From contig OZ241857.1 of NCBI GenBank assembly GCA_965203315.1, forward strand, positions 352,001 to 416,000: 64,000 nucleotides of DNA, given 5' to 3'. The position numbers and the translations under genes were made by a program. Below, one piece after another: positions 1-61,701 of this stretch (position 1 is the stretch's first letter; each line of letters opens with the position of its first letter). The stretch comes from Nitrosopumilus sp. Lineage in GTDB: Archaea; Thermoproteota; Nitrososphaeria; Nitrososphaerales; Nitrosopumilaceae. Below the pieces are notes generated by a model that searched no databases, was not told the origin of the DNA, and worked only from the letters and a program-made list of their open reading frames with translations.

Positions 1-2376
1 CGTAGCATTTTGATTTTTCTTCAAGATGGTCGAGATCACACAATCCGAGAAACATACCAATACGTGGATAAAATACACAATCAAGAAAATATTGAAAAAG
101 GCAATTTTACAAAAACTAAAGTTAAACGGTTCGAATCTAGTGTTCGTGCTATCGTGTCTAATTTACGCAAAACAAAAATGCTTAAAAATACTAAAAATGG
201 TGTATTTCACATAACTGAACGAGGTTTAGATGAATTATTAAATTTTCATAAAATAAGCAATATTTCAGAAAATTTTAGAGATGAATGTTATAAACTCATA
301 ACAAACACATCATTAGATAGTATGAATAAATCAAGCATGTTTTTAGAATTGGCTATTAAGACAACAACTAAATTTCCGTTTGCTTTTTTACCTGAATTAA
401 TCGAAGATTTAATAGACAAAAACTCTATTTCTAATATAATTAAAAAACATAATTTAGAAACCTATCAAAAATTTGAAGCGGTTTTTTCAAGTATGCTAGC
501 ACTAGCTCATAGTAAAGCAAATGAGACTAAAACGCAAGACATAAAAATAAATTTTAAAAGTTTTAGATGGAATAAATCCCACAATTGGTTAAAGATTGAA
601 TCAAATAGGTTTTTTAATCCATTTTTGGCACAATTTAATTATAATATTTTAAGAGCGGTCATAATCATTACAATTTTTAAACATGAATATATTTCAAATG
701 AAGATAATCTTGAAGATATGGTTTACAAAACATATGAAGAAATTAAATGTAAACTAGATGTATTTTCTAATTCGGTTAAGATAAAATCTTTTGAAATGTA
801 CATAAATTCTAAATTAAAATTTAGTTGTGGTTCTATACTGGATGAATTACAATTAGATTATGGAATAGTAAATATTGATGGCAACATATCAATTCCAGTA
901 AAATACACTAACATTAATAAAGAAATTCAAGATGTTATTCAAAATGAAAACGAAGGAATTTCTTACAGAGGATTAGTACATAAATTAAAAAAAATACTAC
1001 CATTGTATACATTAATTCCAGAGATTGGTATATTTAAAGATATTTTAAATGAATTAGAAAAGAAAAAACTAATTTTACGAAAAAGATCACTTGCCAAATT
1101 TGATTCAGATAATGATCAGTTATTTTTATATGATAATTACATGGCAAAAATGGAAAAAATAAAAAATAATTTAATGAGTAGTGGAAGAACTAAATTTTTC
1201 GGTAGAGTAATTAATCCAGAACAATTTATTAATGAAATAAAAACAATGAATGTGGGCGATCTTGAAGACGCTGATGATCAAGTGACTCGAATTGCAGGAC
1301 TGGTTCTTCGTGACTCGATCTTGTTGAGAAATTCACGAGAACATATACCTAACTTTGATTTTGTAATAGATATGAGTAATTATGATCGAATAATGGTACA
1401 AAAAGAATTTTTTAGTAAAATTGGATTTAAAGTTAGATCAAATATACTCCATTGTAAAGTCTTAATAAACGAAACAATCACAACAGACACATTAACAAAT
1501 TTACAATCAAATACTCCTAATGATGAGCAGGGCATAATATTTACTTGTATGCCAGTTAGTGACAAAGTGCGTCAAATTATCAAAGATGATAAGAGTGTTC
1601 AGATTATAGATCAAGATGGCATTTATAAGTGGTGTTTACTTGCACCTGTTATACCAAGTAGACGTTATTCGGTAGTGCGGGTAATGTATGGTGATCATAT
1701 AGGAAGAATTGCTAGAGTTATCTCATTAAATTATGAATCCGGACTTGCAACTATTGAATCTGTACCTGATTATAAGGAAATTATAGTTTCTATTGGATCA
1801 ATTAGTGAGATTTTACCTAACGTCCATGATGAGTTGCGTTTTGGAGAACTTTCTAAAAAATACTTTGAGTTTCTCTGCTTGGTCGCTAAATTATCCTCAG
1901 AACATTTTGAAAGTGGTATGGACACAAAAGTTTTAAATTTTCATGAATCATTTAGAGAACTAAAAAAGAGTACTAATCCAGAATTGTTTGTGGGCCAACA
2001 TCCAAAATTTATGATAGATGAACAGGAACACCAAAATCACAAATATATTGAATTTGAGAATGTATATGTTAAATTATTTATGAGAGGGAGTGATTTTACT
2101 CAATATTTACAATGTAGTTGTTCACACACATTAAATGAAGAATATAATAAAACACTTTGCGTCCATCAGATTGCAACGATTAATTATTTGTGTGTCACGA
2201 AAGATGTTCATGCCATGAATAAACAAATCGTTTTACTTGAAAGTAGATTGAAAAATTTTCAAATTGAAAATATCTTCAAGATGATTGAGACGATACATGA
2301 TTTGCTGGGGGTAGACAACAAGAGACTTATTTTAGATTACGTTCGAGAATGTCTTAAAAGTAAATTAAATTGTTGA
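1..2376 (+). CDS. Multidomain protein, probably 5'-partial: Mrr_N-like winged helix, degenerate Mrr_cat/REase-like region, KOW-like motif, SWIM zinc finger
   Basis: Frame open to base 1 (RSILIFLQDG...). N-term ILIFLQDGRDHTIRE...RFESSVRAIVSNLRKTKML...VFHITERG fits Mrr_N; FDFVID...HCK...GIIFT...VQIIDQDGI resembles Mrr_cat; VVRVMYGDHIGRIARV is KOW-like; CSC...LCVHQIA is SWIM. Confidence 0.6.
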   Translation, partial: RSILIFLQDGRDHTIRETYQYVDKIHNQENIEKGNFTKTKVKRFESSVRAIVSNLRKTKMLKNTKNGVFHITERGLDELLNFHKISNISENFRDECYKLITNTSLDSMNKSSMFLELAIKTTTKFPFAFLPELIEDLIDKNSISNIIKKHNLETYQKFEAVFSSMLALAHSKANETKTQDIKINFKSFRWNKSHNWLKIESNRFFNPFLAQFNYNILRAVIIITIFKHEYISNEDNLEDMVYKTYEEIKCKLDVFSNSVKIKSFEMYINSKLKFSCGSILDELQLDYGIVNIDGNISIPVKYTNINKEIQDVIQNENEGISYRGLVHKLKKILPLYTLIPEIGIFKDILNELEKKKLILRKRSLAKFDSDNDQLFLYDNYMAKMEKIKNNLMSSGRTKFFGRVINPEQFINEIKTMNVGDLEDADDQVTRIAGLVLRDSILLRNSREHIPNFDFVIDMSNYDRIMVQKEFFSKIGFKVRSNILHCKVLINETITTDTLTNLQSNTPNDEQGIIFTCMPVSDKVRQIIKDDKSVQIIDQDGIYKWCLLAPVIPSRRYSVVRVMYGDHIGRIARVISLNYESGLATIESVPDYKEIIVSIGSISEILPNVHDELRFGELSKKYFEFLCLVAKLSSEHFESGMDTKVLNFHESFRELKKSTNPELFVGQHPKFMIDEQEHQNHKYIEFENVYVKLFMRGSDFTQYLQCSCSHTLNEEYNKTLCVHQIATINYLCVTKDVHAMNKQIVLLESRLKNFQIENIFKMIETIHDLLGVDNKRLILDYVRECLKSKLNC

Positions 2377-2798
2377 CTTTTAACTATATCTTCTAAAGTT
2401 TCAACATCTAAATTTTTAATTTGTTGATCCAGGTTATAAAATAGTTTTAAAATTAATGGATCATTTTTCAATATTTTGATCAGATCATGTTTGAGACTCA
2501 GAGCTACGACATCTATGTCTGCTTGCGTATTTGTTAAACTATTGTTTGGTGGTAAATTAGATTTTAAATTGTCTTTGTGCACAAGTAAAATATCTAAAAC
2601 TTTACTTTCGTATTTAATTTCTTCAACTATGACAGAATCACTATTATTCAATTCATCGAAAAAAACTGGTTCTTCATTGGCAGTTATTTTTAAGATTCTT
2701 TTTACATCATCAAAGTATATGCCATCTTTATGTGTTTTGATTAGTTCGAGGGTATCATTCAAATTATCCTTCCCATTCTTTTTCTTGATTTCCGTCAT
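2337..2798 (-). CDS. Hypothetical small winged-helix-like protein directly downstream of dndA
   Basis: 153-aa ORF co-oriented with dnd operon; LELIKTHKDGIYFDDV...EEIKYESKVLDILL also found in the 699-aa ORF at 15559-17658. Confidence 0.6.
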   Translation of the reverse strand: MTEIKKKNGKDNLNDTLELIKTHKDGIYFDDVKRILKITANEEPVFFDELNNSDSVIVEEIKYESKVLDILLVHKDNLKSNLPPNNSLTNTQADIDVVALSLKHDLIKILKNDPLILKLFYNLDQQIKNLDVETLEDIVKSQQFNLLLRHSRT

Positions 2799-2884
2799 GT
2801 ACTTAGGTTTGGTCTGTGTATATAAGAGGTTTTATTTGGCTGGATCTATGTTTTTGTTTACACACTTGAGACAATATTGTTCGA

Positions 2885-4036
2885 TCACTTGATACTCGCA
2901 AGATTTCTTACTGCATTTACGATCTCTTGTGCTGCAAATTCTACCTGATCCGATTTTGTGTACCTGCCTAATCCAACTCTGATCGAAGAGTGAGCTCGTT
3001 CATCATTGTACCCTAAAGCTAGAATGACATGAGATGGTTCAATACTACGTGTTGTACATGCAGAACCAGAGGATATGGCAATTTGCTCTGAAACTAGATT
3101 TATTATTGCTTTTGCCTCGATTTTTGGAAAGTACATATTTAGATTTCCTGATAGTCTGTGCACACTGTCCCCGTTTAACATACCGCCACAATCACAGAAT
3201 ATCCGATACATGTTTGTAGCAAGTTTTTTTAATCTGTAACCTTCTGAATCCATCTCTTTAGATGCTAGAGTTGTTGCTTTTCCAAATCCAACTATTCCAG
3301 GAACGTTTAATGTACCAGAACGTACGCCTCGCTCTTGCCCGCCGCCATGTAGTATTTCATCTAGTTTGAATCTGGGCGAGATCCCTCTAACATATAACGC
3401 ACCTATGCCTTTTGGGCCATACATTTTATGTGCAGAAAATGACATCAAGTCAATATTCATCTTGTTTACATCAATCGGTATGTGACCTACCGCTTGAGCA
3501 GCATCCGTGTGAAATAATACGTCATGTTCATGCGCAATCTTGCCAATACTTGAAATGTTGTGAATTGTCCCAATCTCATTATTGGCAGTCATAATCGATA
3601 TCAGAACTGTTTTATCGTTTATGGCATCTCGGAGATCGTCTAAATCTATGTGACCTAATTCATTTACTGGGAGATATGTCACATTCTTTCCAATTTTTTC
3701 CATATGTTTTACAGTGTTTAACACAGATTCATGTTCAGTGACACATGTAATCAAATGATCGCCTTTTTGTTTGTGTTTTTTCATAACTCCAATTATTGCA
3801 AGATTATTTGACTCTGTAGCTCCACTAGTGAAGACAATTTCATCATGTTTAGAACCAATGACTTTTGCAATATCGGCCCTTGCAGATTCAACTGCTGTTG
3901 ATGCATCATGTCCATATGAGTGATCTAGACTTGATGCATTGCCAAATTTTTCATTAAAGAAAGGCAACATTGAATCTAAAACTCTAAAATCTAGCTGTGT
4001 TGTAGCATTATGATCAAGATAAACTATTTTGTTCAT
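2885..4036 (-). CDS. dndA: Cysteine desulfurase DndA (IscS-like)
   Basis: YLDHNATT, FTSGATESNN, HTDAAQ, SAHKMYGPKG (PLP Lys), SSGSACT (catalytic Cys); overlaps dndE stop. Confidence 0.93.
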   Translation of the reverse strand: MNKIVYLDHNATTQLDFRVLDSMLPFFNEKFGNASSLDHSYGHDASTAVESARADIAKVIGSKHDEIVFTSGATESNNLAIIGVMKKHKQKGDHLITCVTEHESVLNTVKHMEKIGKNVTYLPVNELGHIDLDDLRDAINDKTVLISIMTANNEIGTIHNISSIGKIAHEHDVLFHTDAAQAVGHIPIDVNKMNIDLMSFSAHKMYGPKGIGALYVRGISPRFKLDEILHGGGQERGVRSGTLNVPGIVGFGKATTLASKEMDSEGYRLKKLATNMYRIFCDCGGMLNGDSVHRLSGNLNMYFPKIEAKAIINLVSEQIAISSGSACTTRSIEPSHVILALGYNDERAHSSIRVGLGRYTKSDQVEFAAQEIVNAVRNLASIK

Positions 4037-4416
4037 TGTGTAATATCTCGCTCTTGACGTATTACTTGTTCGATATCGGTAATATCCTGAATTCTAGCAA
4101 ATAACGCTATTGTACCTCGATTAAAGTGAGCGCGAAGCATCTTGTTTAGATATAATTGTGGGGAAAGATTTCTGTGCATCAACTCTTGTACCATAAGCGC
4201 CATAAACATTTCTTCATATTCTCCAAATAGTACAAAAGGATGTATCTCTGCACCTTTTTCATCAAACTCATCGGGATTTGGAAGAGATGGATCATTAAGT
4301 GACATACAGATCGCAAATCTGCCTAAAACATTTGGTGTCAAACCTGTACGTTTTTTAAGCTGACCCATTAGATTCTGAGAGCGTGCACTCATTCGTAATC
4401 GATTAAATCGCAACAA
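4033..4416 (-). CDS. dndE: DNA sulfur modification protein DndE
   Basis: FNRLRMS...LKKRTGLTPNVLGRFAICMSL...LFGEY...RAHFNRG; start moved from 4482 to TTG at 4416 (or 4413) overlapping dndD end. Confidence 0.88.
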   Translation of the reverse strand: MLRFNRLRMSARSQNLMGQLKKRTGLTPNVLGRFAICMSLNDPSLPNPDEFDEKGAEIHPFVLFGEYEEMFMALMVQELMHRNLSPQLYLNKMLRAHFNRGTIALFARIQDITDIEQVIRQERDITQ

Positions 4417-6439
4417 TCTTCTCTCCTCGCTTATTCCAAAAATATCCATCATGTTTAATGGTTGCACCTTCCTCTTCGACATACTCCATGGCGTATGATC
4501 TCATCATATTTTGTTCTAGTTTGACAAAATCATCATATTTTATCTCTGTGTCTGTTGAAAATATGAGTACTTGATGCGAAGCTGTGGGGAAAAACTGCTC
4601 AAGAATATTTGTTCTATGTTCTTCATCTAATCGCGCTAGAGGTGTGTCTATCATAAATGGCAGAGGCCTACCAGATGTTTTTGCAAGTGCCCATAGAACT
4701 GCCATTGCAAACATCTGTTTTTCTCCTTCGGATAACAGCTCTTTTGAGAAACGATCTCGGTTTTTACGATATAGTGTAATTTCAAATGTTTCTGGATCAA
4801 CAGTTACTGAATGAATAAAATTCCTCTTGTGCATAAGCATCTTTATAGCATCTAGTAGATATTGCTCCAAGATCGATATTTTTTTAAGCCTAAGTTGTTC
4901 AATAAACTCTTCCAAGACCATTTGAACATTTTGTGTAATCTCTACATTCTCTATTGATTTTTTATTTTTATATATTTGAGACACTATGTTACGTAACTTG
5001 GTGTTCAGATGTTGTTCTAGTGATATACTGCTTGATATCTTTTCTTCCATATGTTCTATTTCCGACTGAAGCATACCTATCTGGTTATGAACGTTACCAA
5101 TACTACTCAATAACGGGCCAATTTCATCATCATTCGGAGCATTTGCGAGTGAGCATTCAAGTATAGTGATCTTTTCGGATATCTCTCTGAGTTTTGTTGT
5201 GTCTTGCTGTAGATCTTTTAACGTAGATGTATTTGCTTTTTGTATTATATCTAGTATACGTGTAGATTGACTAGATGAGAAATCAAATGATGGTTTTGCT
5301 GATGACTGATCATTATGATGTTTAAATAATTTAGTTATGCTATTTACAACATCCACTCTAGAATCATCATCAATTTGAATATTTATCCAAAAGTCTGAAT
5401 CTTTTAGTTCTGATATTATTTTATTAGTTTTTGCGGTAATGGCTTTTTGACCCATTATGTCTAGCTTGATCAAATCATCTTTTTTAATTTGTTCAGATAA
5501 TGATTGTAATTTTGATGGAATTAATGCAAATGGCAGCACACCAGAACATATTGACTCTATATGTTTGTGTATGATATCGTAATTTGTCTTTTGTTCTGCA
5601 AGTTCTTCTATAGCACTAGTACGGTTACTGGCAAAAGTACCTCCTATGTTGGTTAGTTTTGATTCCATATTATCTATTTCTAGTTGTAATGAGTCTATTT
5701 CGGTTTGTTTTTGAGCAATTTTATCAATCATGCGATTATTTGTGTCTTTTATGTTATCTTTTTCAGATTTAAGTCTATCAAAATCTTCTTGAAGTGATTT
5801 ATTGTCGCTTGTAAGATTTCGTGTCATATTTACTTGTAGATCGGTGTACAGTTGTTCTACCAGCTCAATTCCCAACAATGACTTGAATGATTCTCTGATT
5901 GTAATATCTTCTGTGCCTTCTTTTGCCATCTTTACTATTTTTTCGCCATCAAAGAAAAACAACTTGATTATTCCTTTTGGTATTATATCTTCTACAAATG
6001 ACTGCCACTGTGATTTTTCAATCGTGTCCAAGGTAACAAACTTAGACTCTTGTGAATTGCGTTTTTTTATAGATAGTTGCTCATTAACTCTACCGTCTTC
6101 ATCTGACCAAGAACGTTCTACTTTGTATTCTACTTCTTTATTATTGTGAAAGAATCTAAACTGTACTGATACTGATGTATGATCTGCATGTGTTGAACTC
6201 TTTAAATATCTATGAATTTTACTTGCAAGAAATTGCCCATATGATCTTTTGGTAGATCTCTTTTCCATGACCGATATTCCGTACAGACACAACATGATGG
6301 ACTCAAATAGAGTGGTCTTGCCTGCACCGTTTGTGCCACCAACTAGTACAATGGGCCTTTGTTCAGTACATGTGAAATCAAACTCATTTCTGCCACAATA
6401 TACACCATAATTTTGTAATATTACTCGTGTTATGATCAA
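4403..6439 (-). CDS. dndD: DNA sulfur modification protein DndD (SMC-like ATPase)
   Basis: Walker A GGTNGAGKTT, FFFDGEKI, long coiled coil, LSEGEKQ, MIDTPLARLD, ASHQVLIFSTDTEI. Confidence 0.95.
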   Translation of the reverse strand: MIITRVILQNYGVYCGRNEFDFTCTEQRPIVLVGGTNGAGKTTLFESIMLCLYGISVMEKRSTKRSYGQFLASKIHRYLKSSTHADHTSVSVQFRFFHNNKEVEYKVERSWSDEDGRVNEQLSIKKRNSQESKFVTLDTIEKSQWQSFVEDIIPKGIIKLFFFDGEKIVKMAKEGTEDITIRESFKSLLGIELVEQLYTDLQVNMTRNLTSDNKSLQEDFDRLKSEKDNIKDTNNRMIDKIAQKQTEIDSLQLEIDNMESKLTNIGGTFASNRTSAIEELAEQKTNYDIIHKHIESICSGVLPFALIPSKLQSLSEQIKKDDLIKLDIMGQKAITAKTNKIISELKDSDFWINIQIDDDSRVDVVNSITKLFKHHNDQSSAKPSFDFSSSQSTRILDIIQKANTSTLKDLQQDTTKLREISEKITILECSLANAPNDDEIGPLLSSIGNVHNQIGMLQSEIEHMEEKISSSISLEQHLNTKLRNIVSQIYKNKKSIENVEITQNVQMVLEEFIEQLRLKKISILEQYLLDAIKMLMHKRNFIHSVTVDPETFEITLYRKNRDRFSKELLSEGEKQMFAMAVLWALAKTSGRPLPFMIDTPLARLDEEHRTNILEQFFPTASHQVLIFSTDTEIKYDDFVKLEQNMMRSYAMEYVEEEGATIKHDGYFWNKRGEKIVAI

Positions 6440-7929
6440 GTTCCAAACTCCTTGTTATTTTGCTGATACACTTTGAGATCATGTACTATCTCGCCTAGAT
6501 CTTCTCTCCATTCTTCAGATAACACTTTGTTTAATTTTGGATATATCTTGGAGTGTCTGGTCATCCCTTGCGACTCTTGTTCAATATTGAGTAGTTTAGC
6601 AACCAATAGCATCGGAACATTGTTTTTCTTACAGATCTCTTCCAACAAATTTTGTTCAACCATTCCAAATCTTCCTAGATCCTCTTGTGGAGGCACAAGC
6701 CTTTGCTCTGTTATCTTTTCATATATCTGATAAGCCGTATTCTTCCAGTCACCACGTTCAATACGCCATATTCTCTGTATCTCGTGAATTTCTTCTTCTT
6801 GTATTAATTTCAGAGATGGATCAGGCCCTGTCTCTCTAACTTTCATTTGAGCGATCAGTAGTTTTTCAAGAAACTCTTTACAAAAATCTAAAGTATATGG
6901 ACCAGGCACTAAATTAAAATACGGATCAGATTCTTCATCTTTGCCCTGTTCCATTTTTGATTCTCGTATCTTTTCACTAAAAGCCTCTTTACGCTTTTCA
7001 TCGATCAATTTCATTTGACCATTACGTCGCTTTAAGGATCTGACTTGTTTTCTCTTTATTGGATCATGTGTGTCCTTTAACTCTTCTCGTAGCTCTAAAA
7101 GTGGTTCCATCCATTCCTCTCCATTTTCAATAGTATTTCGTAGTGAAGAATCATCATTTACTACTGTACATGTCCAACAACCAAATCTACTATTTCCACA
7201 AGATGGCGTACTGCTGTCAACTACTAGTGGACATTCACTTGCATTTGCGTTCTGATACATAACAAGGAGATCTCTATTGTTTGCTCCCCATGGATTGCTC
7301 TCTTGTAGTAAATAACTCCAAACATCTTTGGCGGTAAAGTCTCGCAAAGGCGTATAAACATATGTCTGAGCAAATTTGGAATGCCTCGATAACAGGCTTC
7401 CCTCTATCTCATATAGATTCATTAGTTGTTGTCTAGATCCACTCTCATCCTTTCTAGTCCCTAGTATTATTATTGCTTCACCATACTCTGATACTTTTTC
7501 TTGAATGAAACGATCAGCGTTTCGTATCTTTAATCGTTCAGTACACCACCTGAATAGATTGCTTGGTGCTGGGAATCCTTTACCCAACAAGCACACCCAA
7601 AAGGTATCTTCGACTACTGGTCTAACTAGATTAGTAGATAATGGGAGGTGAGAGTGTTTAGATGCTTTCTCCATCATGTCTAATGTCTTTGTTATCTGCT
7701 CTACGACCTTTGGTGATTCTACTAGGGTGTCTGATGATATGACGAAGAGATTTTTATGTAGTTTGTTTGAAGGTAGTCTAGACAATGCATTCCATATCAA
7801 CTGAACCATGCAAGTAGAGTCTTTACCACCACTAAACCCTAAAATCCAAGGTCTGTTGTCGCTTTGATATACTGTCTGAATTTCTTTGTAAATATCATTC
7901 AAATGTCTGGCCTTAAAGATCGATTCCAA
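6436..7929 (-). CDS. dndC: DNA phosphorothioation sulfurtransferase DndC (PAPS reductase family)
   Basis: PWILGFSGGKDST, SDTLVESP, FRWCTERLKI, ECPLVVD..TPSCGNSRFGCWTCTVV. Confidence 0.96.
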   Translation of the reverse strand: MESIFKARHLNDIYKEIQTVYQSDNRPWILGFSGGKDSTCMVQLIWNALSRLPSNKLHKNLFVISSDTLVESPKVVEQITKTLDMMEKASKHSHLPLSTNLVRPVVEDTFWVCLLGKGFPAPSNLFRWCTERLKIRNADRFIQEKVSEYGEAIIILGTRKDESGSRQQLMNLYEIEGSLLSRHSKFAQTYVYTPLRDFTAKDVWSYLLQESNPWGANNRDLLVMYQNANASECPLVVDSSTPSCGNSRFGCWTCTVVNDDSSLRNTIENGEEWMEPLLELREELKDTHDPIKRKQVRSLKRRNGQMKLIDEKRKEAFSEKIRESKMEQGKDEESDPYFNLVPGPYTLDFCKEFLEKLLIAQMKVRETGPDPSLKLIQEEEIHEIQRIWRIERGDWKNTAYQIYEKITEQRLVPPQEDLGRFGMVEQNLLEEICKKNNVPMLLVAKLLNIEQESQGMTRHSKIYPKLNKVLSEEWREDLGEIVHDLKVYQQNNKEFGT

Positions 7930-9620: not shown

Positions 9621-9626
9621 CTGAAC

Positions 9627-11637: not shown

Positions 11638-11638
11638 A

Positions 11639-33214: not shown

Positions 33215-33221
33215 TCACATA

Positions 33222-33923: not shown

Positions 33924-33925
33924 GG

Positions 33926-35433: not shown

Positions 35434-35437
35434 TGTA

Positions 35438-37849: not shown

Positions 37850-37854
37850 CTTTA

Positions 37855-38250: not shown

Positions 38251-38293
38251 CTAGAGAACAACCTCCATCTCTGTTAAAATTGTACAGTCCATA

Positions 38294-46144: not shown

Positions 46145-46184
46145 TCATCGAATGATTAATTAGTCCAAATTTGAGAGGGAAGAC

Positions 46185-48520: not shown

Positions 48521-48725
48521 CTATCCTGATGTAGATAAACTAGGTTTGGTTCACACAGGTGTAAAATTGGACAAGAGAGTGATTCTACTCTTGACTGCAA
48601 CATTCAAGACATGTGCTATTACTCGACTTTTTGGAACGTTTGATGAACTGTAAAATTATTACGGAACATATTGTAGTCCATAAACACATAAAGATTCATT
48701 TTACGAGCTGTACGATGATACCGCA

Positions 48726-49685: not shown

Positions 49686-49721
49686 TATCTTTTTAAACCC
49701 CAGTACAGCTCAACTGGTGAA

Positions 49722-53094: not shown

Positions 53095-53124
53095 GTTTAA
53101 AAGCAACTGACCGCAGTTCCGTAT

Positions 53125-54291
53125 ATGCCATATATGGATTACAACTCTACAACACCCATAGACACTCGTGTGTTAGACATAATGAACAAAACATATACTG
53201 AACACTTTGGAAACCCATCGAGTACACACCCGGTAGGAATTGATGCAGATGATCTCTTAAATACAGCACGGGAAAATGTATCGGCACTAGTAAATGCTAA
53301 ATCAAACGACGTGATATTTACTTCAGGAGCTACAGAAGCCAACAATATGGTGATATCATGGATCGGAACAAAGAGTGATAAGCCAAACCGTCTCCTATAT
53401 GGATCCACAGAACACAAGTCAATAATTGAGACTTCCACTTACATGTCCAAAAAATTTGGACTCGAAATAAAACCAATCCCAGTAACAACGGATGGTGTTA
53501 TAGATATAGAAAGATACAAAGAACTCTTGGATGAATCATCTACAGATATCGTATCAGTGATGGCGGCAAATAGTGAGACGGGTGTAATTAATCCAATCAA
53601 AAAAATTGCTCACCTAGCTAAATCTCATGGCGCTATATTTCACTGTGATGCTACACAAGCTGTAGGTAGAATTCCTTTTGATATGAATGATCTAGATATC
53701 GATATTGTCACAATGAGCAGTCATAAAATTTATGGTCCAAAAGGTGTAGGAGCCCTAATTGCAAACAGATCAATCCGAAGGCAGTTGAGTCCTCTGATTC
53801 ATGGCGGAGGTCAAGAAGGAAATCTGCGTAGTGGTACAGAGAATGTTCCAGGCATAGTTGGATTCTCAAAGGCATGTGAGATAGCAATATCTGAAGGATT
53901 AGATGACTCTAAACGACAAGCAGATATGCGTGATAATCTAGAATCCCATTTGATATCATCACTAGATAATGTTACTGTAAATGGTGGTAATGTGGATCGC
54001 ATACCTAACACAACAAACCTAAGAATCGCCGGTGCTCTGGCCGATGCAGTAGTCGTAAACTTGAAAGAGACAGATATCTCAACTGGCAGTGCATGTTCAT
54101 CATCTACAATGGAGCCTTCACATGTACTAATTGCTATGGGTTTAACTAGAGATCAAGCAGATGAATCAATTCGTATATCTGTTGGAAGACCTACAACGCA
54201 ACAAGATGTGTACACGACAATTAGAGATATCATACAATCAGCTACATATGTTAGGCAAAAAGAGACAGAGATCACAGGACGTGTAATATGA
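53125..54291 (+). CDS. sspA: Cysteine desulfurase SspA (IscS-like)
   Basis: YMDYNSTT, FTSGATEANN, HCDATQ, SSHKIYGPKG, STGSACSS; overlaps sspB. Confidence 0.9.
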   Translation: MPYMDYNSTTPIDTRVLDIMNKTYTEHFGNPSSTHPVGIDADDLLNTARENVSALVNAKSNDVIFTSGATEANNMVISWIGTKSDKPNRLLYGSTEHKSIIETSTYMSKKFGLEIKPIPVTTDGVIDIERYKELLDESSTDIVSVMAANSETGVINPIKKIAHLAKSHGAIFHCDATQAVGRIPFDMNDLDIDIVTMSSHKIYGPKGVGALIANRSIRRQLSPLIHGGGQEGNLRSGTENVPGIVGFSKACEIAISEGLDDSKRQADMRDNLESHLISSLDNVTVNGGNVDRIPNTTNLRIAGALADAVVVNLKETDISTGSACSSSTMEPSHVLIAMGLTRDQADESIRISVGRPTTQQDVYTTIRDIIQSATYVRQKETEITGRVI

Positions 54292-55253
54292 TGCTAATTA
54301 CCGAGGCTGTTCCCGCACCATCATTTTCACGACATGAATCATTTCATCTTCGATATGGTTGGCTCAAGAAAGCATATAATCAAGTAATGCAAGATAGTTC
54401 TATATTCAAACGTGATAACGCCCCTATCAAACTTGGTGTAGGAAAAAATATGGTACGCGCCATAAAGTTTTGGGGATTGGCTAGTAAAATATTGGAGATA
54501 GACTCTCAAACAAAGCATGGTCCTGTAATATCTACGTCTCTTGGCCATTACATATTTGCCGATAATGGACTCGATCCATACATCGAGAATCCAAACACGC
54601 TATGGCTTTTGCATTGGCTATTACTTGCTCCTCCGTGTAGACTTCCTGTATGGTGGTTAATCATGAACCGATTTACTGCAACAAACATCAAAGTAAATGA
54701 TCTTATAGACACAGTCACAAATCAGATCACAAACATTAGTGAATGGGCTTCGCCTAGCCCAAATTCTATAAAAAAAGATATTGATGTATTCATCCATACC
54801 TACACTACTAGACGAGATAAGATGTCCATAGAAGAATACTTGGACTGTCCTTTACGCCAAATTCACATACTTAAACAAAATTCTAAAGACGAGATACGCT
54901 TCATCTATGGCGAAAAATATGGATTGTCCCCTTTTGTGGTAGCATTTGCCTGTCTAGACTTTATAGACAGAGCAAACATTCAATCTAAGAGCGTATCTGT
55001 AAGTAAACTTGCGACAGAATATGGTGGTGTTGGGAACACATTCAAGATTACTGAACACGATTTAACAAAAATGTTGTTGGAAACCTCTAATCAAACTAGT
55101 ATTTTGTCAGTACAAAATATTGCGGGTCTGCCACATTTAACATTCAAAAGCACTGCAAAAGAAGCTTCATTAAAAATATTGGCAGAAATGTATGGCAAGA
55201 AGCGATTACCACACATCAAATCTTTATCAGAATTAAAGGTGATTATTCAATGA
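54288..55253 (+). CDS. sspB: SspB (DUF4007 family)
   Basis: FSRHESFHLRYGWLKK, LGVGKNMVRAIKFW, DPYIE...TLWLLHW. Confidence 0.92.
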   Translation: MMLITEAVPAPSFSRHESFHLRYGWLKKAYNQVMQDSSIFKRDNAPIKLGVGKNMVRAIKFWGLASKILEIDSQTKHGPVISTSLGHYIFADNGLDPYIENPNTLWLLHWLLLAPPCRLPVWWLIMNRFTATNIKVNDLIDTVTNQITNISEWASPSPNSIKKDIDVFIHTYTTRRDKMSIEEYLDCPLRQIHILKQNSKDEIRFIYGEKYGLSPFVVAFACLDFIDRANIQSKSVSVSKLATEYGGVGNTFKITEHDLTKMLLETSNQTSILSVQNIAGLPHLTFKSTAKEASLKILAEMYGKKRLPHIKSLSELKVIIQ

Positions 55254-58200
55254 CAACTCTACAAAAGACTAAAAAGAAGACTAAACCACTATCTCGTCTA
55301 GTCACCACCATCCAAAAGCCAAACGCTTCTACAAATGTAGAGCATGATGATATTATCTCTTTAAAACAGTACTTTCCAGGTCCCAGTACACTAGATGTAA
55401 TCAAGCGGTTTGCAAACAGTCTTACTAACTCCAAAAATGGAGTAATGTTATCGATAACTGGTCCTTATGGATCTGGCAAATCCACCATGGCAACATTTCT
55501 AAAAGGATTAACGTCGTCTAGATCTACTACAGAATGGCAGACATCTCACCACATATTGAAGAAGATCGCTCCAGACATAGATAAACTACTTGTAGATGGA
55601 AGAAGACTCACCGAGACTGATGAACGTGGACTATTAACGTGTGCAATATCTGCAAGACGTGAACCACTATCTATAACAATACTTCGTGCTTTACATAAAG
55701 GGGCAGAACAATACTTTGGTAGATATACAAACAAGCATTTTGCAAATGCTGATCTTCTTGTACACGCGATCAATAATTTGGACAAAACACCTCCAAAAAC
55801 CAGCGATATCATAGAGATCATATCTAGTATGTGTCAAGTATCTCCTGTACTGTTATTGATAGATGAGTTTGGGAAGAATATAGAGTATTTTACAGTTGAT
55901 GGGACAGAAAACAGCGATCTGTTTCTTTTGCAACAACTTGCAGAGATGTCTGGTCGCGGAAGAAGAGTACCGTTATCGATCATAACGCTGCAACATATGG
56001 CTTTTGAAGAATACGTGGGTGTATCAATGAATCAAAAACGGGAATGGTCCAAGATTCAAGGCAGATTTGAAGATATACCTTTTGCAAACTCGCCAGATCA
56101 AATACGCCTGCTAATCTCAAAGAGCATACGTATTGACAACTCGATCGCTAGTAACAAAATCATTAAAAGATGGGCAGAACAGCAGTTAAAGAAATTACAA
56201 CATATTGTAAATAATGAGTCTAGTACAGATTTAATTGCAGCTTGTTACCCACTAGATCCATTATCTCTTGAAATTCTTCCTGAACTGTGTACTAGGTACG
56301 GTCAACATGAGCGAACATTATTGTCATTTATCACAAGTGGTGGTAAACACACAGTTGCGACATTTATAGATCAAAATACGTGGGACAATACCGCCAGATT
56401 ACCCACAATGAGTATTGATGTACTCTATGATTATTTCATAAGGGACACTAGTATGATTCATTCTAATTCTAACATAACTAGACTGATGGAGATTGAAACA
56501 ATAATCCGTGACGCACACGGTTTAACCGATCTTGAGACCAAAACACTCAAAGTCATAGGATTAATAAATTTAATTAGCACGTCTGGAAATCTACGTGCGT
56601 CTCAAAGAGTGATCGAGTATGCAATCGGATGTAATCCGAATTTAATCTTGAAGAAACTGGAAAAAAGATCCATCATTACATTTAGAAAACATGCTGATGA
56701 ATATAGGATATGGCGTGGCACAGACATTGATATTGCTGTCAATTTAGAGATACAGAGCAAGCGATATCAAAATACCCCTCTTCTAGAAATATTAAATCAA
56801 ACAATACGTATTGATGCAATAGTAGCTGCCAAACATAATATTGAAACTGGCAGTATGAGGCTCTTTGAGAGACGGTTTGCTGATGGTTCAAACACTGTTC
56901 ATGTCGATGATGCTTATGATGGCGCAATCATTTATAGAATTGCTAACTGTGCAATCCCAAAGGCTAACAAACCAATAATTGTGATCGACGCACAAGATTT
57001 TACTGATCTTCGTGTTGCGAGTATACAAGTTATGGCTATTCAAGATACTTTAAACGATGAGACTGTTGTTAATGATTGGGTAGCTACAAAAGAACTGCGT
57101 GAGAGACTTGCAGATGCTGAGACGAGAATGGATCAAGTGTTTAACAGCACGTACGGCTACGATGCTCGATGGTCATATCTTGGTAAGAATAAAGCAATCG
57201 GAAACGACACACTCAGTTCAATAGTATCCAAAGTTTGTGATGTCGCGTACAATCAAACACCAAAGATTTACAACGAGATGATCAACCGTAATGTAATATC
57301 TAGTCAAGGGATTACAGCTAGGAAAAATCTATTTGACAGAATGCTCACTAGTCCACATAAACATTCTTTTGGTATTGAAGGCTGGGGTCCTGAAAGAGCA
57401 CTTTATGAAGCCATGTTTGCAAAAAAGATTCATGTTGGTAAATTTAACTCAGAGTGGAAGTTACAAGATGTTAACGACGAATCCTTGACGCCTTCTTGGA
57501 ACATGATGCTTGATACAATCAGATCTTCAAAGACGCGCGTATCGATATTTGATATATATGAAAAATGTAAATTACCTCCGTATGGAATCAAAGAAGGAGT
57601 CATACCGTTATTTGTTATTCCTATTCTTTTAATACACAAAGATAACATCGCCGTGTATGAACATGGATCATACGTTCCAAAGATTACTATTGAAGTTATA
57701 GAAAGAATGGTCAAAAACCCTGTTCATTTTGAGGTAAAGTATTTCAAACTGACCCCATCAAAGAAGCAACTAATTCAAACAGTATCAAATGATCTAGGAA
57801 TAAAGACAAATTCAAGTATACTTGGTATTGTGAGTCACATTGTAAGAATAGTCTCTACATTACCCCCGTATGTGATCAAGACGCAGAGGTTGAACAAAAA
57901 CACACTAGCTGTAAAGGGTTCCATCATATCGGCAATAGAGCCAGATGTATTGTTGTTTCATACGCTTCCAAAAGCACTTGGTTTTAAGCCATTTTCTACT
58001 AGCGTCTCGGATAAAGATATTATAAAGTTCTCTAAAACACTCGCAAATTCAGTCAAGACACTGCAAAATGAATTCGACAAGACACTTGACGATGTTATAG
58101 ATATGTTATATGAAACAACGGGCATATACGATCGAGCAAAATTATCAAAGTTAGCCAAAATGATGTTAGATGACGTCACAAACAAAACGATGAAGACTTT

Positions 58201-58588
58201 TCTAAGCGCAATATCTACTGATGCATTGGAGAGTGATTATGATTGGATCAAATACGTTGCATTGAGTCTAACTGACATACCTCCTGCAAACTGGAAAGAC
58301 GAACAGAGATTGATGTTTGAGAACAAGCTTGCAGAAATATCGAGTCAATTTAATAGACTAGCCTCACTACATTTTGCAAATATTGTAGATGCTTTTGAAA
58401 CACCTTATTGCCAAATAACCATCACACATGCAGATGGTAATGAAGAACACAAGATGGTTGCCTTGAATCCTGAGCGAAAGAAGGTTATAGAAAAAGAAGC
58501 AAAGAACATACTTCGATCATTAAAAAAGAAAGGCTTTTCTGTTAAAGATAGAGACGCTTTAGTGGCTATCCTAAGTTCTGAAGACTGA
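55250..58588 (+). CDS. sspC: SspC large P-loop ATPase
   Basis: ITGPYGSGKST, LLIDEFGK, EWSKIQGRF, CYPL.P, GQHERTL.SF, NEMINR, PPYGIKEG. Confidence 0.9.
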   Translation: MTTLQKTKKKTKPLSRLVTTIQKPNASTNVEHDDIISLKQYFPGPSTLDVIKRFANSLTNSKNGVMLSITGPYGSGKSTMATFLKGLTSSRSTTEWQTSHHILKKIAPDIDKLLVDGRRLTETDERGLLTCAISARREPLSITILRALHKGAEQYFGRYTNKHFANADLLVHAINNLDKTPPKTSDIIEIISSMCQVSPVLLLIDEFGKNIEYFTVDGTENSDLFLLQQLAEMSGRGRRVPLSIITLQHMAFEEYVGVSMNQKREWSKIQGRFEDIPFANSPDQIRLLISKSIRIDNSIASNKIIKRWAEQQLKKLQHIVNNESSTDLIAACYPLDPLSLEILPELCTRYGQHERTLLSFITSGGKHTVATFIDQNTWDNTARLPTMSIDVLYDYFIRDTSMIHSNSNITRLMEIETIIRDAHGLTDLETKTLKVIGLINLISTSGNLRASQRVIEYAIGCNPNLILKKLEKRSIITFRKHADEYRIWRGTDIDIAVNLEIQSKRYQNTPLLEILNQTIRIDAIVAAKHNIETGSMRLFERRFADGSNTVHVDDAYDGAIIYRIANCAIPKANKPIIVIDAQDFTDLRVASIQVMAIQDTLNDETVVNDWVATKELRERLADAETRMDQVFNSTYGYDARWSYLGKNKAIGNDTLSSIVSKVCDVAYNQTPKIYNEMINRNVISSQGITARKNLFDRMLTSPHKHSFGIEGWGPERALYEAMFAKKIHVGKFNSEWKLQDVNDESLTPSWNMMLDTIRSSKTRVSIFDIYEKCKLPPYGIKEGVIPLFVIPILLIHKDNIAVYEHGSYVPKITIEVIERMVKNPVHFEVKYFKLTPSKKQLIQTVSNDLGIKTNSSILGIVSHIVRIVSTLPPYVIKTQRLNKNTLAVKGSIISAIEPDVLLFHTLPKALGFKPFSTSVSDKDIIKFSKTLANSVKTLQNEFDKTLDDVIDMLYETTGIYDRAKLSKLAKMMLDDVTNKTMKTFLSAISTDALESDYDWIKYVALSLTDIPPANWKDEQRLMFENKLAEISSQFNRLASLHFANIVDAFETPYCQITITHADGNEEHKMVALNPERKKVIEKEAKNILRSLKKKGFSVKDRDALVAILSSED

Positions 58589-58785
58589 TTCCATAGCGAA
58601 TCAACTATGCAATCTCTTAATTGATAAAGCACTAAAAATTGATGTTGTTAAATCGTTTTACGCATCATTCTATAACGCGGAATTAAAAAGTTACATCTCG
58701 TACTCCATATCCATATCTCTTGCAAAACTATGCTCGATCTAAACTTTTAGAAAATTTTAATAAATAGCAATATGATCTTAGATGT

Positions 58786-59625
58786 GTGGTTAGGCATGTC
58801 TGTGGCATATCTGGAGGTAAAGACTCTAGTGCTCTTGCTGTATATATGAGAGACAAAGTTCCAGACATGGAGTATTTCTTTTGTGATACGGGTGCCGAGT
58901 TGCCAGAGACTTATACATATCTTGCAAAGCTCGAGGTAGTACTAGGTAAAAAGATCGCCAAACTCAATTCAACACGTAGTTTCGATCACTATTTTGAAGT
59001 CTTTCGTGGAACTCTGCCATCGCCACAGATGCGTTGGTGTACAACAATGCTAAAGATAAAGCCACTCGAAGAGTGGATAGGCGAGGATGAAGTAATATCG
59101 TATGTAGCCATACGTGCAGACGAAAAGAACAGGACTGGATATGTGTCTACAAAGCCCAACATAACTACTGTATTTCCATTCATTGAAGACGACATAGATC
59201 ATTCAGGCGTAATCAGGATACTTGAAGATGCTGGAATTAATCTTCCAGAGTACTATGAGTGGCGAACTCGTTCTGGTTGTTACTTTTGTTTCTTTCAGCG
59301 AAAAGCAGAATGGGTAGGTCTAGCAGACAAGCATCCTGATCTCTTTGAACGTGCAGTTGCAATAGAACAAAAGATACTCAAAGATGCAGGTGTTGCAGGA
59401 GATGCAGATTTTAAATCAAGTGGAATGAAAGGTCGTCAGTATACGTGGTCACAAGGAGAGACACTCCCGGAACTCTTGTCTAGAAGAGAAGAGATAATGA
59501 AGAATCATCAAGAGAGCATCAAGAGAGCAAAATCAAAGCGAAAGAATCTACCTCTGATCGAAGTTCTCTCAGATGCTCTAGATGACGATGACGAGTCTAC
59601 ACCGTGTACTATGTGTCATCTGTGA
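58786..59625 (+). CDS. sspD: SspD (PAPS reductase family sulfurtransferase)
   Basis: RHVCGISGGKDSSALA, FCDTGAELPETY, RWCT..LKIKP, YEWRTRSGCYFCFFQ, C-term CxxCHL. Confidence 0.92.
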   Translation: MVRHVCGISGGKDSSALAVYMRDKVPDMEYFFCDTGAELPETYTYLAKLEVVLGKKIAKLNSTRSFDHYFEVFRGTLPSPQMRWCTTMLKIKPLEEWIGEDEVISYVAIRADEKNRTGYVSTKPNITTVFPFIEDDIDHSGVIRILEDAGINLPEYYEWRTRSGCYFCFFQRKAEWVGLADKHPDLFERAVAIEQKILKDAGVAGDADFKSSGMKGRQYTWSQGETLPELLSRREEIMKNHQESIKRAKSKRKNLPLIEVLSDALDDDDESTPCTMCHL

Positions 59626-59766
59626 ACTTGCACATAATTCGAGTACAATCAAACTTTTCAGATTATTGAACAATTTCGGCCATCCACAAGCATGTGCTGT
59701 ACAAATAATGTTTTGTTAATTTTGCAAGGATTGAGAGCGATGTGACACTATTTCAAGTAGCGTATA

Positions 59767-60005
59767 TGCCGAAGTGCAAAAGTATTTTCCAAAAAATCAC
59801 TACACATATCTCAGTGAGGATCTCTTAGATTTACATGAGATAGAATGGTTACAGAAAAAACACTACAAGATCTTATAAGGGAAAATTAGAAAAAACCTTA
59901 TGAAATGTCATCGCACGTAAACAGAAAAGATTCATCATGATATGTCCTAATCAACAATTACAGTTAGAAACAAAATGACCACAAACATGTTTTTGTACTT
60001 GACTA
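59767..60005. mobile_element. Nested MITE cluster: family C left end, family B copy (59818-59933), family A right end
   Basis: TGCCGAAGTGCAAAAGTATTTTCCAA at 59767; GGATCTCTTAGATTTA...AAAAGATTC; ATGATATGTCCTAATCAAC...TTTTTGTACTTGACTA matches 28495-28562. Confidence 0.78.
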
Positions 60006-60063
60006 TACATGTTCATTGAGATCAAAGCACCTTGTTCTCAACCAGTTACTTCATTAACATAAT

Positions 60064-61701
60064 CTACGAATGAAATATCCGCCTCAAGCTAGAACCGCAA
60101 CTAGGACATACTCGTCGATCATGGATCAGTTCACAAGATACACAGCAAAACTCTAGTGAACTCTTGGTCTGATTGCTAGACTTTAACTTGACTATCTCTG
60201 ATTTTAACTCTTCAATCTCTGATCGTACTAGATCATAAGCAGACTCGTTTCTAGTCTCTTCTAGTTTTCGTAATCTCTGTACCTCTTGCGTCAAATGGTC
60301 AAAGTCGACTAGTTTGTTTGTCATCTCTACCTTTATCTTTTGAATATCATCACCCTTGTTCGTTAGACTTGCAAATCTAGTAAAAATATTGATCATGTAC
60401 GATGCTTTGGCAAACTCTTCACGCATCGCCTCTGGATATAGTACATGTTGTTTCTCGTACGAGTCTTTGGGCTTGTGTCCTATAACATGCTCTGCGACAT
60501 CTGCACGACATCCTGCAACTATTAATGTGGACTTTAATAGATCTCGCATCTCGTGTGGCCCTGCACGATTCTTGCCACCATATATCTTGGTACGAATGAT
60601 CTCTGCTTTGTTGCCGAGTTTTATGAAGCGATTATGAACCCAATAGTGTTTTATGGGAACGCATTTGTTGGTTATGAATAATGGCTGATCAGCAGACATT
60701 GGCTTACCTGTGACTTTGTATCTGTGCTTCAGATATGGTATCAATGCAGATACTGCATCTCGGTCTATATATCCTGAATGTTTATAGTCGGTCTTGACGC
60801 GTACCAAACTTATCGGTACAGGACAACGCGACAGATCCCACATCTCATAGTTTTCACCACCAAAGTGTTTCGCAATTTGTTCCCACGCGTCATAGTTGAA
60901 TCGATCAATAGTAGTAGATATGTCCATACCACGCTGAAACATGCACAAGAATAATGCTTTGTCTAGTACAGTGGGATTTCCATGTGTAAGCATGGCCAGT
61001 AAATCTGATAATGTAAACGACTTTTCTGCCACAAGTGTGGAGTGATTGACTTTGGGGTTATACTTGATGTTTAGATCACGATCATGGTGTGCAAAATAGC
61101 TCTTGACTGCAGCTTTTGTGACTACCAAAGAAGCGGCTTTCTTGTGCTTGTGTACCGGATCTTGAAGATATCGTGTAATTATACGAACCGTGTTTGATGG
61201 ATCTGTGCTTGGCTTTTTTGTAAAATGTAACAACTCTTCCACGTTATCGAATTGTTGATGAGTTATCTCTTGAGTATCTGTAGCATGATTGTATCTCTCG
61301 ATCTGATGTGTCTTACCTTGTAGCCATTGATCAAACTGAGTCAGCATAACCAAGTAGGCAGAGCGGGTAGTGCTCTTTGGTTTAGCATGATTGTACTTGC
61401 CACCGTTGAGATAACCCAACCAATATTGTACAGTATCTAGATGAGTTATATCATGTTCAACATACTCTATCTTTTTTGCTAATCCGACAGCAACAGCACG
61501 CTTTAAGGCATTACGAACACATCTGACCATATGATCGTCTGTCACTCCTGCAAACTCTGTGTGACGAGCATCCAGTATAGAGCGTACTGTTATTTTATCA
61601 CCTGGCTGGTAAACCTTCAAGATCTCTGCAAATTTTAAATGTACGTGAGGTATTGTGTTGGGCTCAACTATCTCATAAGTATCCATCATACTATAAGCCA
61701 T
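60064..61701 (-). CDS. Tyrosine recombinase/integrase with C-terminal coiled coil and zinc ribbon
   Basis: RVKT, HEMR (HxxR), AEHVIGH, SY; C-term CVSC...CPSCG; first catalytic box reads RGMD. Confidence 0.85.
   Translation of the reverse strand: MAYSMMDTYEIVEPNTIPHVHLKFAEILKVYQPGDKITVRSILDARHTEFAGVTDDHMVRCVRNALKRAVAVGLAKKIEYVEHDITHLDTVQYWLGYLNGGKYNHAKPKSTTRSAYLVMLTQFDQWLQGKTHQIERYNHATDTQEITHQQFDNVEELLHFTKKPSTDPSNTVRIITRYLQDPVHKHKKAASLVVTKAAVKSYFAHHDRDLNIKYNPKVNHSTLVAEKSFTLSDLLAMLTHGNPTVLDKALFLCMFQRGMDISTTIDRFNYDAWEQIAKHFGGENYEMWDLSRCPVPISLVRVKTDYKHSGYIDRDAVSALIPYLKHRYKVTGKPMSADQPLFITNKCVPIKHYWVHNRFIKLGNKAEIIRTKIYGGKNRAGPHEMRDLLKSTLIVAGCRADVAEHVIGHKPKDSYEKQHVLYPEAMREEFAKASYMINIFTRFASLTNKGDDIQKIKVEMTNKLVDFDHLTQEVQRLRKLEETRNESAYDLVRSEIEELKSEIVKLKSSNQTKSSLEFCCVSCELIHDRRVCPSCGSSLRRIFHS

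Follow-up and report, generated by a model that had tools for sequence, protein, structure and literature searches.

Dnd and Ssp systems both write phosphorothioate (PT) marks into DNA, the Dnd motif being typically double-stranded and the Ssp motif typically single-stranded. We analyzed a 64,000-nucleotide stretch of Nitrosopumilus sp. DNA (the window; C1:352001-416000) which carries a gene set of each kind, dndBCDEA and sspABCD, and, directly upstream of sspA, three genes encoding an HKD nuclease, a superfamily 2 (SF2) helicase, and a MORC-like GHKL ATPase. A sequence-only reading of the window had drawn attention to the two writers, each with its own cysteine desulfurase and neither with a recognizable reader, as the makings of a two-layer sulfur epigenome. 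Of greater interest than this pairing is the nuclease-helicase-MORC set linked to PT, followed, on weaker evidence, by a Dnd-linked ParB/metallo-beta-lactamase (MBL) cassette.

The closest described systems each resemble the window in some respects and differ in others. Specifically, i) the DndABCDE system of Streptomyces lividans and Salmonella is matched by all five genes, here in the order B-C-D-E-A, with DndB, DndC, and DndD above their NCBIfam equivalog cut-offs and DndE above its Pfam cut-off only, but no DndG or DndH match is found here, DndC has a C-terminal Sp-DndD domain, and the neighbors are SNF2, ParB, and MBL genes as well as Mrr_N genes; ii) SspABCD, paired with SspE or SspFGH in Vibrio and E. 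coli, is matched by a single cluster of four writer genes in the order A-B-C-D with strong PADLOC scores, but the host is archaeal, no SspE is found beyond a weak DUF262-type match, and a different three-gene set lies upstream; iii) PbeABCD of haloarchaea, whose PbeA (also TIGR04095, dnd_restrict_1) is reported to be a fusion of HKD endonuclease and SF2 helicase encoded downstream of the Dnd genes (PMC10853773), resembles the window in having a PbeA-like helicase and HKD nuclease side by side and next to PT writers, but the nuclease and helicase of the new set are separate genes, sometimes on opposite strands, the window nuclease ends in tandem winged helices and does not match PbeA, a MORC-like ATPase is present instead of a second DndD-type (PbeC) or DndE-type (PbeD) protein, and the set is mostly paired with Ssp rather than Dnd; iv) SauUSI (PDB 7clg), an ATP-dependent type IV enzyme, unites a phospholipase D (PLD) nuclease, SF2 helicase, and DNA-recognition domain in one polypeptide and cuts modified DNA, and is the top Foldseek match for our nuclease model (E 2.8e-4) as well as matching the helicase in sequence (1.8e-10), but in the window these parts are divided between genes and joined by a GHKL ATPase, and the link to a writer suggests unmodified DNA as the target; and v) MORC-type GHKL proteins and MzaB of the MZA system share an N-terminal GHKL domain with intact ATP-binding motifs, but the window protein falls far below the MzaB cut-off. 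Prokaryotic MORC-type GHKL ATPases are associated with helicases and nucleases in restriction-like gene sets.

A nuclease, a helicase, and a MORC-like ATPase upstream of sspA

The three genes are co-directional and separated by gaps of at most 36 nt, a limit that holds for the entire row of seven genes from nuclease to sspD except for the 198 nt preceding sspD (Table 1); the nuclease, helicase, MORC-like GHKL, and sspA-B-C-D genes look like one operon. Residues H84, K86, and N101 of the nuclease are invariant in nine of nine homologs, and an AlphaFold2 model of the protein (pLDDT 80) finds SauUSI, BfiI, Zucchini, Nuc, and NucT by Foldseek (E 3e-4 to 2e-2, probability 1.00), placing its predicted fold in the PLD/HKD superfamily with an HxK motif. 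No Pfam, PADLOC, or NCBIfam family was found for the protein. Its own family is sizable, a search of 1.84 billion representatives at E<=1e-30 yielding 255 clusters; members are named in their sources as "hypothetical" or "PLD phosphodiesterase domain-containing".

Modeled alone, residues 160-319 of the nuclease form two winged helices (pLDDT 89, 20 sequences). Foldseek found no PDB match for this domain at E<=1e-3, and VIA-align gave Z scores of 7.6 for 3bhw, 7.3 for N.BspD6I, 6.4 for FokI, 6.3 for SspB (146 residues aligned), and 6.2 for BrxA; none reaches the value of 8 below which the tool advises caution, as a match may then reflect no more than a common arrangement. SspB, FokI, and BrxA (with DndG) have been grouped as one family of DNA-recognition modules (PMC10853773, PMC12839542), and the modeled resemblance gives a lead, to be taken as a lead only, that the tail may be an SspB/FokI-like module of this kind.

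The helicase matches PADLOC PbeA at 3.5e-25 in the helicase part only (model positions 232-617 of 672) and TIGR04095, the "DNA phosphorothioation system restriction enzyme" model, at 1e-11, far below cut-off; its PDB sequence matches are RadD (2e-21) and SauUSI. The ATPase has both the N box (ExxxNxxD) and the DxGxG motif; MORC2/3 and MzaB are its closest relatives (PDB MORC2 4e-7; MzaB 5e-22, 78 bits against a cut-off of 850). A search of the ESM Atlas with its C-terminal ~400 residues returned unnamed clusters only, a Morc6_S5 row at 0.78 being too low to be used. Prediction of a complex between helicase and nuclease scored 0.00 with controls not run, and so speaks neither for nor against binding.

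Canonical readers

Genome-wide, neither DndH (TIGR03237) nor DndG (PDLC02678) was matched, by models whose sensitivity is unverified as neither matched any control genome. Of three SspE models, PDLC02784 and PDLC02788 had no match in the genome and PDLC02783 had one, at C1:1840067 and 1.4 Mb from ssp (E 3e-7, model positions 24-133 of 793); this last model also matches five control genomes. The sole gene with this weak SspE-model match is a 694-aa open reading frame (ORF; C1:1838567-1841860, L001) with a DUF262-type N-terminus. A PbeC/PbeD pair is excluded because dndD and dndE have no paralog in the genome: tblastn with each finds only itself at E<=1e-8, dndD being the sole DndD-like gene. 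SspF, SspG, SspH, DndF, and PbeB had no PADLOC match among the 28 window ORFs scanned, a search that did not extend to the rest of the genome.

The statement of the sequence-only reading that no reader is recognizable thus stands for SspE, DndG/H, and PbeC/PbeD, but has to be amended for the PbeA-like helicase, HKD nuclease, and MORC-like ATPase directly upstream of sspA. Since the features of PbeC/D, DndG/H, and SspE were looked for and not found, the Ssp-side set appears not to be a member of the PbeABCD, Dnd, or Ssp reader families. Neither this set nor the SNF2/ParB/MBL cassette on the Dnd side matched any PADLOC v2 system, and neither was found described in the literature examined. PT writers usually lack a canonical partner: 2211 of 2678 bacterial sspBCD sets lack both sspE and sspFGH, with 83.9% given as having no known partner (PMC8092258), and DndABCDE is reported to be commonly decoupled from DndFGH (PMC10853773).

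The three-gene set is linked to PT writers in two domains of life

We surveyed 301 Nitrosopumilaceae species genomes in 27 genera (the present genome, G000, and 300 others), scoring a genome as PT-positive when it carried DndC (PDLC02662, E<=1e-40), SspB (PF13182), or both; four unpublished genomes without a PT match (G206, G228, G258, and G260) enter only among the negatives, including the PT-negative counts for AbiEii. The nuclease occurs in 24 genomes, every one PT-positive, and in none of the 248 PT-negative genomes; 18 of the 21 SspB carriers have it, as do 6 of the 32 carriers of DndC alone. A control defense gene, AbiEii, is present in 53 of the 301 genomes, with 21 of 53 PT-positive and 32 of 248 PT-negative genomes carrying it (odds ratio 4.4).

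From the 20 other SspB-positive genomes we examined 15 ssp loci, excluding five on short contigs. Ten of the 15 have one or more of the three genes inside the 20-kb stretch and six have all three, with gene order and orientation differing between loci. Among 20 dnd loci, chosen for long contigs from the 45 other DndC-positive genomes, the set stands directly beside dndA in two, both from genomes without SspB. Scanning all species genomes with the nuclease alignment returned 23 loci, of which 17 have PT genes within 10 kb (13 ssp, 4 dnd) and 19 have both helicase and GHKL genes; four of the six loci without nearby PT genes are cut by contig ends, and the other two (L038 and L054) show no PT gene.

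The same linkage is seen in bacteria. In a Pyrinomonadaceae locus (L055) the set lies beside dndBCDE and dndA, and in Ekhidna and Cyclobacteriaceae loci (L057 and L058) desulfurase, helicase, GHKL, and nuclease genes form one row facing sspD-C-B. A locus from a metagenome-assembled genome (MAG) labeled Candidatus Poribacteria (L044) combines sspDCBA with all three genes of the set, its nuclease having 62-63% identity and its SspD being 81% identical to that of the window. This locus is closer to the window than are the other bacterial loci, and represents either cross-domain transfer or a mis-binned archaeal contig. Across two domains of life, the three-gene set shows a closer association with PT writers than does the AbiEii control.

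A second cassette beside dnd

Divergently from dndB run genes for an SNF2-family helicase and an unassigned 272-aa protein, followed by two ParB-like proteins and a beta-CASP MBL-fold nuclease. The SNF2 protein has DrmD/BrxH-like PADLOC matches, all far under equivalog cut-offs. In another family locus (L023) the SNF2 gene (53% identity) and 272-aa pair, then ParB, lie directly downstream of dndA; parts of the SNF2/ParB/MBL row are found beside dnd in 3 of the 20 loci (L023, L025, and L027) and also in two ssp islands (L038 and L045). The MBL profile matches 11 of the 301 family genomes, nine of them DndC-positive, and the MBL gene is within 10 kb of DndC in seven; one genome (G299) has two dnd clusters, each with its own MBL-cassette gene 5-9 kb away. 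The main text of a Dnd neighborhood survey (PMC10853773) does not contain the words "lactamase", "MBL", or "CASP". The SNF2-ParB-ParB-like-MBL cassette may be a Dnd-linked partner, on weaker evidence than that for the Ssp side.

Two Mrr_N proteins flank the dnd region. The one encoded at positions 1-2376 has no PADLOC, NCBIfam, or PDB sequence match; the other (15559-17658) matches a PADLOC type IV restriction enzyme over its Mrr_N part only and has no PDB sequence match. Mrr_N proteins recur beside dndA in 1 of the 20 loci (L034, with a homolog of the former at 29% identity).

Proposed roles and alternatives

We lean toward seeing in this genome two PT writers in separate islands, without a canonical reader and each beside a recurring candidate partner cassette. 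Gene content, intact motifs, predicted folds, and conservation of the neighborhood are what the analysis shows; that both writers are active, and the roles that follow, are inferred. On the Ssp side, SspABCD would mark the cell's own DNA; the helicase and MORC-like ATPase would then load and translocate along the DNA or clamp it; and the HKD nuclease, guided by its FokI/SspB-like winged helices, would nick or cut unmarked DNA, the set as a whole working like PbeA or DndFGH/SspFGH. On the Dnd side, the SNF2 protein, the two ParB-like proteins, and the beta-CASP MBL protein would take the corresponding role. As modeled, the nuclease is a candidate PT-linked restriction nuclease. The data fit equally well with an SspE-like arrangement whose effector would be activated by PT in the DNA of the host.

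Several observations weigh against such a coupling of writers and cassettes. None of the three genes is found within 20 kb at 5 of the 15 ssp loci; three nuclease matches (39-42% identity) are at least 34 kb from any PT gene, and a further one is 33 kb from a PT gene; 6 of the 24 nuclease matches are on other contigs than the PT genes; and 5 of the 24 contain a stop, the distant matches including a fragment with an internal stop. The nuclease does not match PbeA at E<=0.01, and the winged-helix scores lie, as noted, in the cautionary range. Two of the 11 MBL-cassette genomes (G097, 76% complete, and G176) have no detected PT gene. Related genomes are not independent samples, and orphan writers are usual in bacteria. 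PT carriers are moreover defense-rich (AbiEii is enriched ~4-fold in them), so that part of every PT association reflects co-location in islands.

In a different account, the writers would be orphan PT systems with an epigenetic or antioxidant role and the cassettes independent defense systems sharing the same islands. The abundance of partnerless sspBCD sets and the decoupling of DndABCDE from DndFGH favor it, as do the excess of AbiEii in PT-positive genomes and a window full of other defense genes. Unlike AbiEii, however, the nuclease is absent from all PT-negative genomes; it is found beside either type of writer, in varied order and orientation, in archaea and three bacterial groups; and the three genes share one row with the desulfurase gene in the Bacteroidota loci. 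We regard the orphan-writer account as rather unlikely, while giving it real weight. A reversal of polarity, in which the set would be a type IV enzyme cutting PT-DNA as SauUSI cuts methylated DNA, is unlikely given that the set adjoins a PT writer.

Our more specific proposal goes beyond a pair of writers with candidate partners, and we offer it tentatively, as possible rather than probable: that the HKD-winged-helix nuclease, SF2 helicase, and MORC-like GHKL ATPase constitute an undescribed PT-coupled restriction module which can fit Ssp or Dnd, is common to Nitrosopumilaceae and several bacterial phyla, and serves Ssp here while the SNF2/ParB/ParB/beta-CASP cassette serves Dnd.

Two complete writer modules

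Both modules are present and complete at the coordinates given by the sequence-only reading, dndBCDEA on the minus strand (2885-8997) and sspABCD on the plus strand (53125-59625), each with its own cysteine desulfurase. All nine genes are full length, the catalytic signatures of all the enzymes are intact, and both writers are apparently functional; the two-layer sulfur epigenome is a prediction from gene content.

Table 1. Genes and other features of the window, with the matches on which their names are based
Feature	Position	Strand	Evidence and remarks
Large Mrr_N-domain protein	1-2376	+	Downstream of dndA; Pfam Mrr_N 1e-7; ORF starts before the window, ~800-830 aa in total
dndA	2885-4036	-	IscS/NifS-type cysteine desulfurase; PADLOC DndA 3e-156; pyridoxal phosphate-Lys motif SAHK, catalytic GSAC
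dndE	4033-4482	-	PF08870 2e-20 (73.5 bits, cut-off 25); PADLOC DndE 3e-41
dndD	4403-6439	-	ABC/SMC-like ATPase; TIGR03185 476 bits, cut-off 246; Walker A present
dndC	6436-7929	-	PP-loop sulfurtransferase; TIGR03183 514 bits, cut-off 290; SGGKDS motif
dndB	7930-8997	-	DGQHR/ParB superfamily; TIGR03233 365 bits, cut-off 328; DGQHR motif
SNF2-family helicase	9886-11637	+	SNF2-rel_dom 1e-37; divergent from dndB
272-aa protein, function unassigned	11609-12427	+	After SNF2; divergent from dndB
ParB-like protein	12856-13725	+	TIGR00180 parB 4e-17
Second ParB-like helix-turn-helix protein	13718-14512	+	ParB-like helix-turn-helix motifs
Beta-CASP MBL-fold nuclease	14505-15554	+	Cas14 MBL-CASP 1e-9; ligase-associated exonuclease 4e-8
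Mrr_N and homing-endonuclease-associated repeat protein	15559-17658	-	Mrr_N 4e-17; HNH_repeat 4e-7
S8 subtilase	17921-21511	-	1196 aa
AbiEii toxin and AbiEi antitoxin pair	25127-26697	-	PF08843 7e-32; PF09407 1e-9
Archaeal ribosomal-protein operon	32284-40355	-	Pfam, 11 proteins: L3, L4, S19, L22, S3, S17, L24, S4e, L5, S8, L6; S4e archaeal/eukaryotic
Serpin	44007-45485	-	492 aa
Insertion sequence (IS) transposase, DDE_Tnp_1	47212-48288	-	Pfam 3e-15; left edge of ssp island
HKD/PLD-fold nuclease	48726-49685	+	319 aa; N-terminal ~155 aa PLD; C-terminal ~160 aa tandem winged helix
SF2 helicase, RadD/SauUSI/PbeA-like	49722-51302	+	ResIII 5e-21; DEAH box
MORC-like GHKL ATPase	51295-53094	+	HATPase_c_3 5e-24 (85 bits, cut-off 25); C-terminal ~400 aa uncharacterized
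sspA	53125-54291	+	Cysteine desulfurase; PADLOC SspA 9e-131; SSHK and GSAC motifs
sspB	54288-55253	+	DUF4007, PF13182 7e-83 (278 bits, cut-off 27); PADLOC SspB 5e-90
sspC	55250-58588	+	ORC/Cdc6-BrxC-type ATPase; PADLOC SspC 3.5e-288, BrxC 7e-100; Walker A present
sspD	58786-59625	+	PP-loop/PAPS-reductase-type enzyme; PADLOC SspD 2e-111; SGGKDS motif
545-aa protein	60064-61701	-	Weak tyrosine-recombinase match, Phage_integrase 2.7e-4, below cut-off; right edge of ssp island
AAA_21 ATPase	62857-63843	-	PADLOC candidate HEC-01A 2e-21

The dndE product scores 69.5 bits with TIGR03184, narrowly below the cut-off of 71.85, and the dndA product scores 419 bits with TIGR03235 against a cut-off of 480; because that score is below the equivalog cut-off, the DndA label rests on position. 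DndA and SspA are 38.9% identical, and a third IscS-like paralog on the same contig (C1:955906-957036) is probably the housekeeping desulfurase. The "small protein found in certain Dnd systems" is in the window fused to DndC, as judged from a C-terminal match to the Sp-DndD domain (PF20306, residues 427-470, 1.5e-9).

Across the family loci SspD is 75-88% identical to that of the window, and SspA, SspB, and SspC only 39-62% (L002-L016 and L037-L058). The sspC-sspD junction often contains 1.8-2.8 kb of additional DNA (L002, L003, L004, and L045), which in L045 is the whole ParB/ParB-like/MBL cassette; sspD is relocated or inverted in L006, L009, and L010. Degenerate ssp loci also occur in relatives: L016 has its sspB split in two, and in L012 no sspC was found in the interval from sspB to sspD.

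Degenerate loci of this kind, together with the internal stops in nuclease homologs from 5 of 24 genomes, could be taken to mean that only one writer is active, the other being recently acquired or decaying, and that the cell has a single PT layer. We think this improbable in view of the nine full-length genes, their intact catalytic motifs, and the contig-typical codon and tetranucleotide make-up of both modules.

Dual carriage recurs in the family

DndC is found in 46 and SspB in 21 (7%) of the 301 family genomes, and both together in 14 (the present genome and 13 others) from 7 of the 27 genera, where independence would predict 3.2 (odds ratio 15.5). The statistical strength of this co-occurrence is overstated because related genomes are not independent, and part of it is a "defense-rich genome" effect, AbiEii being enriched in PT carriers as well. 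Of the 21 SspB carriers, 14 also have DndC. The present genome is the only dual carrier among the 38 genomes of its own genus. The two modules lie 94 kb to more than 700 kb apart in the ten other dual carriers that have both on one contig; the 44-kb spacing in the window is the closest seen, but nothing indicates that the two form a joint unit. Some family genomes have more than one DndC gene, with two or three separate copies in G044, G052, G071, G089, G299, G014, G016, and G124.

Dual writers are a recurrent state in Nitrosopumilaceae and not peculiar to this genome. The rarity implied by the sequence-only reading is not borne out, 13 of the 300 other family species genomes carrying both systems, an outcome that largely matches one which this reading had itself named as refuting it; its headline of a dual epigenome without readers keeps its basis in the genes observed, but is weakened by this recurrence and by the candidate readers described above. 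Two writers per genome are also reported for some Cyanobacteria, in which dndCD and sspBCD co-occur, the host here being archaeal; in gut genomes, by contrast with the 14 of 21 SspB carriers that are DndC-positive in Nitrosopumilaceae, the same source describes Dnd and Ssp as "nearly exclusive" (PMC12914056). When combined in E. coli and Salmonella, the two systems are reported to be compatible and additive (PMC10470545). The dnd genes are known from Nitrosopumilus-type archaea or marine Thaumarchaeota and from sponge symbionts (PMC7848895, PMC12780485); our literature search found no paper mentioning Ssp in Thaumarchaeota.

One organism, two islands

The assembly (2.47 Mb in seven contigs) is 99.98% complete with 1.48% contamination, and the window is part of its 1.94-Mb contig C1, which carries archaeal amoA together with both modules; the named relatives are Nitrosopumilus, Cenarchaeum, and Nitrosopumilaceae MAGs. 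The source of the window is an ammonia-oxidizing archaeon of the Nitrosopumilaceae, in agreement with the "thaumarchaeote" of the sequence-only reading. Neither module stands out from the contig in its codon or tetranucleotide make-up: among all 6.2-kb windows, the tetranucleotide distance from the contig mean ranks at percentile 0.74 for dnd and 0.21 for ssp. Positions 48494-64000 are tiled, with 0-1 differences, by contigs from four public runs in two studies. The depth of these contigs matches that of the neighboring single-copy pieces on the left (166-176 vs 180-192 in run X2, and 410-478 vs 412-485 in run X3), agreement extending over the three upstream genes and ssp in three runs, and the same sequence is present in the second study.

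The IS at 47.2-48.3 kb interrupts the public-run contigs and has five copies on contig C1 with at least 98.9% protein identity; its ~5-fold contig depth agrees with these five near-identical copies. A second IS family has ~7 copies at 44% identity on the contig, and the genome is both IS-rich and unusually large for the genus (2.47 Mb vs mostly 1.4-2.2 Mb). At the other edge of the ssp island, the 545-aa protein has a 39%-identical paralog elsewhere on the contig. Because neither a tRNA nor any Rfam family was detected in the window, there is no tRNA-type integration site; and DNA comparison with five genomes of the same genus (65-79% identity) found the locus non-syntenic, so that no insertion boundaries could be defined. 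The ribosomal operon, which runs from L3 to L6, separates the two variable islands that hold the Dnd and Ssp writers, its place between the modules being as the sequence-only reading had described. The variable regions flanking this operon also contain the subtilase and serpin genes; there are four AbiEii matches in the genome, and the AAA_21 ATPase has three paralogs (38-52% identity) on the contig.

That the two modules come from different organisms, joined by an assembly or binning artifact, might be argued from the multi-contig assembly, the IS copies, five of them near-identical, that flank the ssp island, and the close homolog of that island in the MAG labeled Poribacteria (L044). Against this stand the location of both modules on one 1.94-Mb contig with amoA and the ribosomal operon, the low contamination and normal composition, the single-copy depth over the three genes and ssp with the same sequence in a second study, and the closest homologs of both modules, which lie within the same family. 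We see one organism and no sign of misassembly, with matching public-run depth over 48494-64000; a chimera of two organisms is very unlikely, and an artifact of any such kind highly improbable. Scarcely more credible is a type 4 BREX in place of Ssp, which shares homologs of SspB, SspC, and SspD (PMC12839542) and would account for the matches of SspC to PADLOC BrxC (7e-100) and of SspD to BrxP (6e-11), since the Ssp models score far higher (SspC 3.5e-288) and Pfam and PADLOC scans, the latter of 28 window ORFs and both confined to the window, showed neither PglZ nor BrxL.

Implications

Dual carriage of Dnd and Ssp is in itself no surprise, being recurrent in the family and published for Cyanobacteria. 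The presence of Ssp in ammonia-oxidizing archaea is another matter: the literature examined names dnd only, whereas the genomes show SspB in 7% of species, two-thirds of which also have Dnd. Most known PT writers have no known restriction partner, and the three-gene set is a concrete candidate for one; it may also provide a handle on how PT-marked DNA is discriminated from unmarked DNA. If our proposal is correct, two sulfur-based restriction-modification systems, each complete and differing in mechanism, would operate together in this archaeon.

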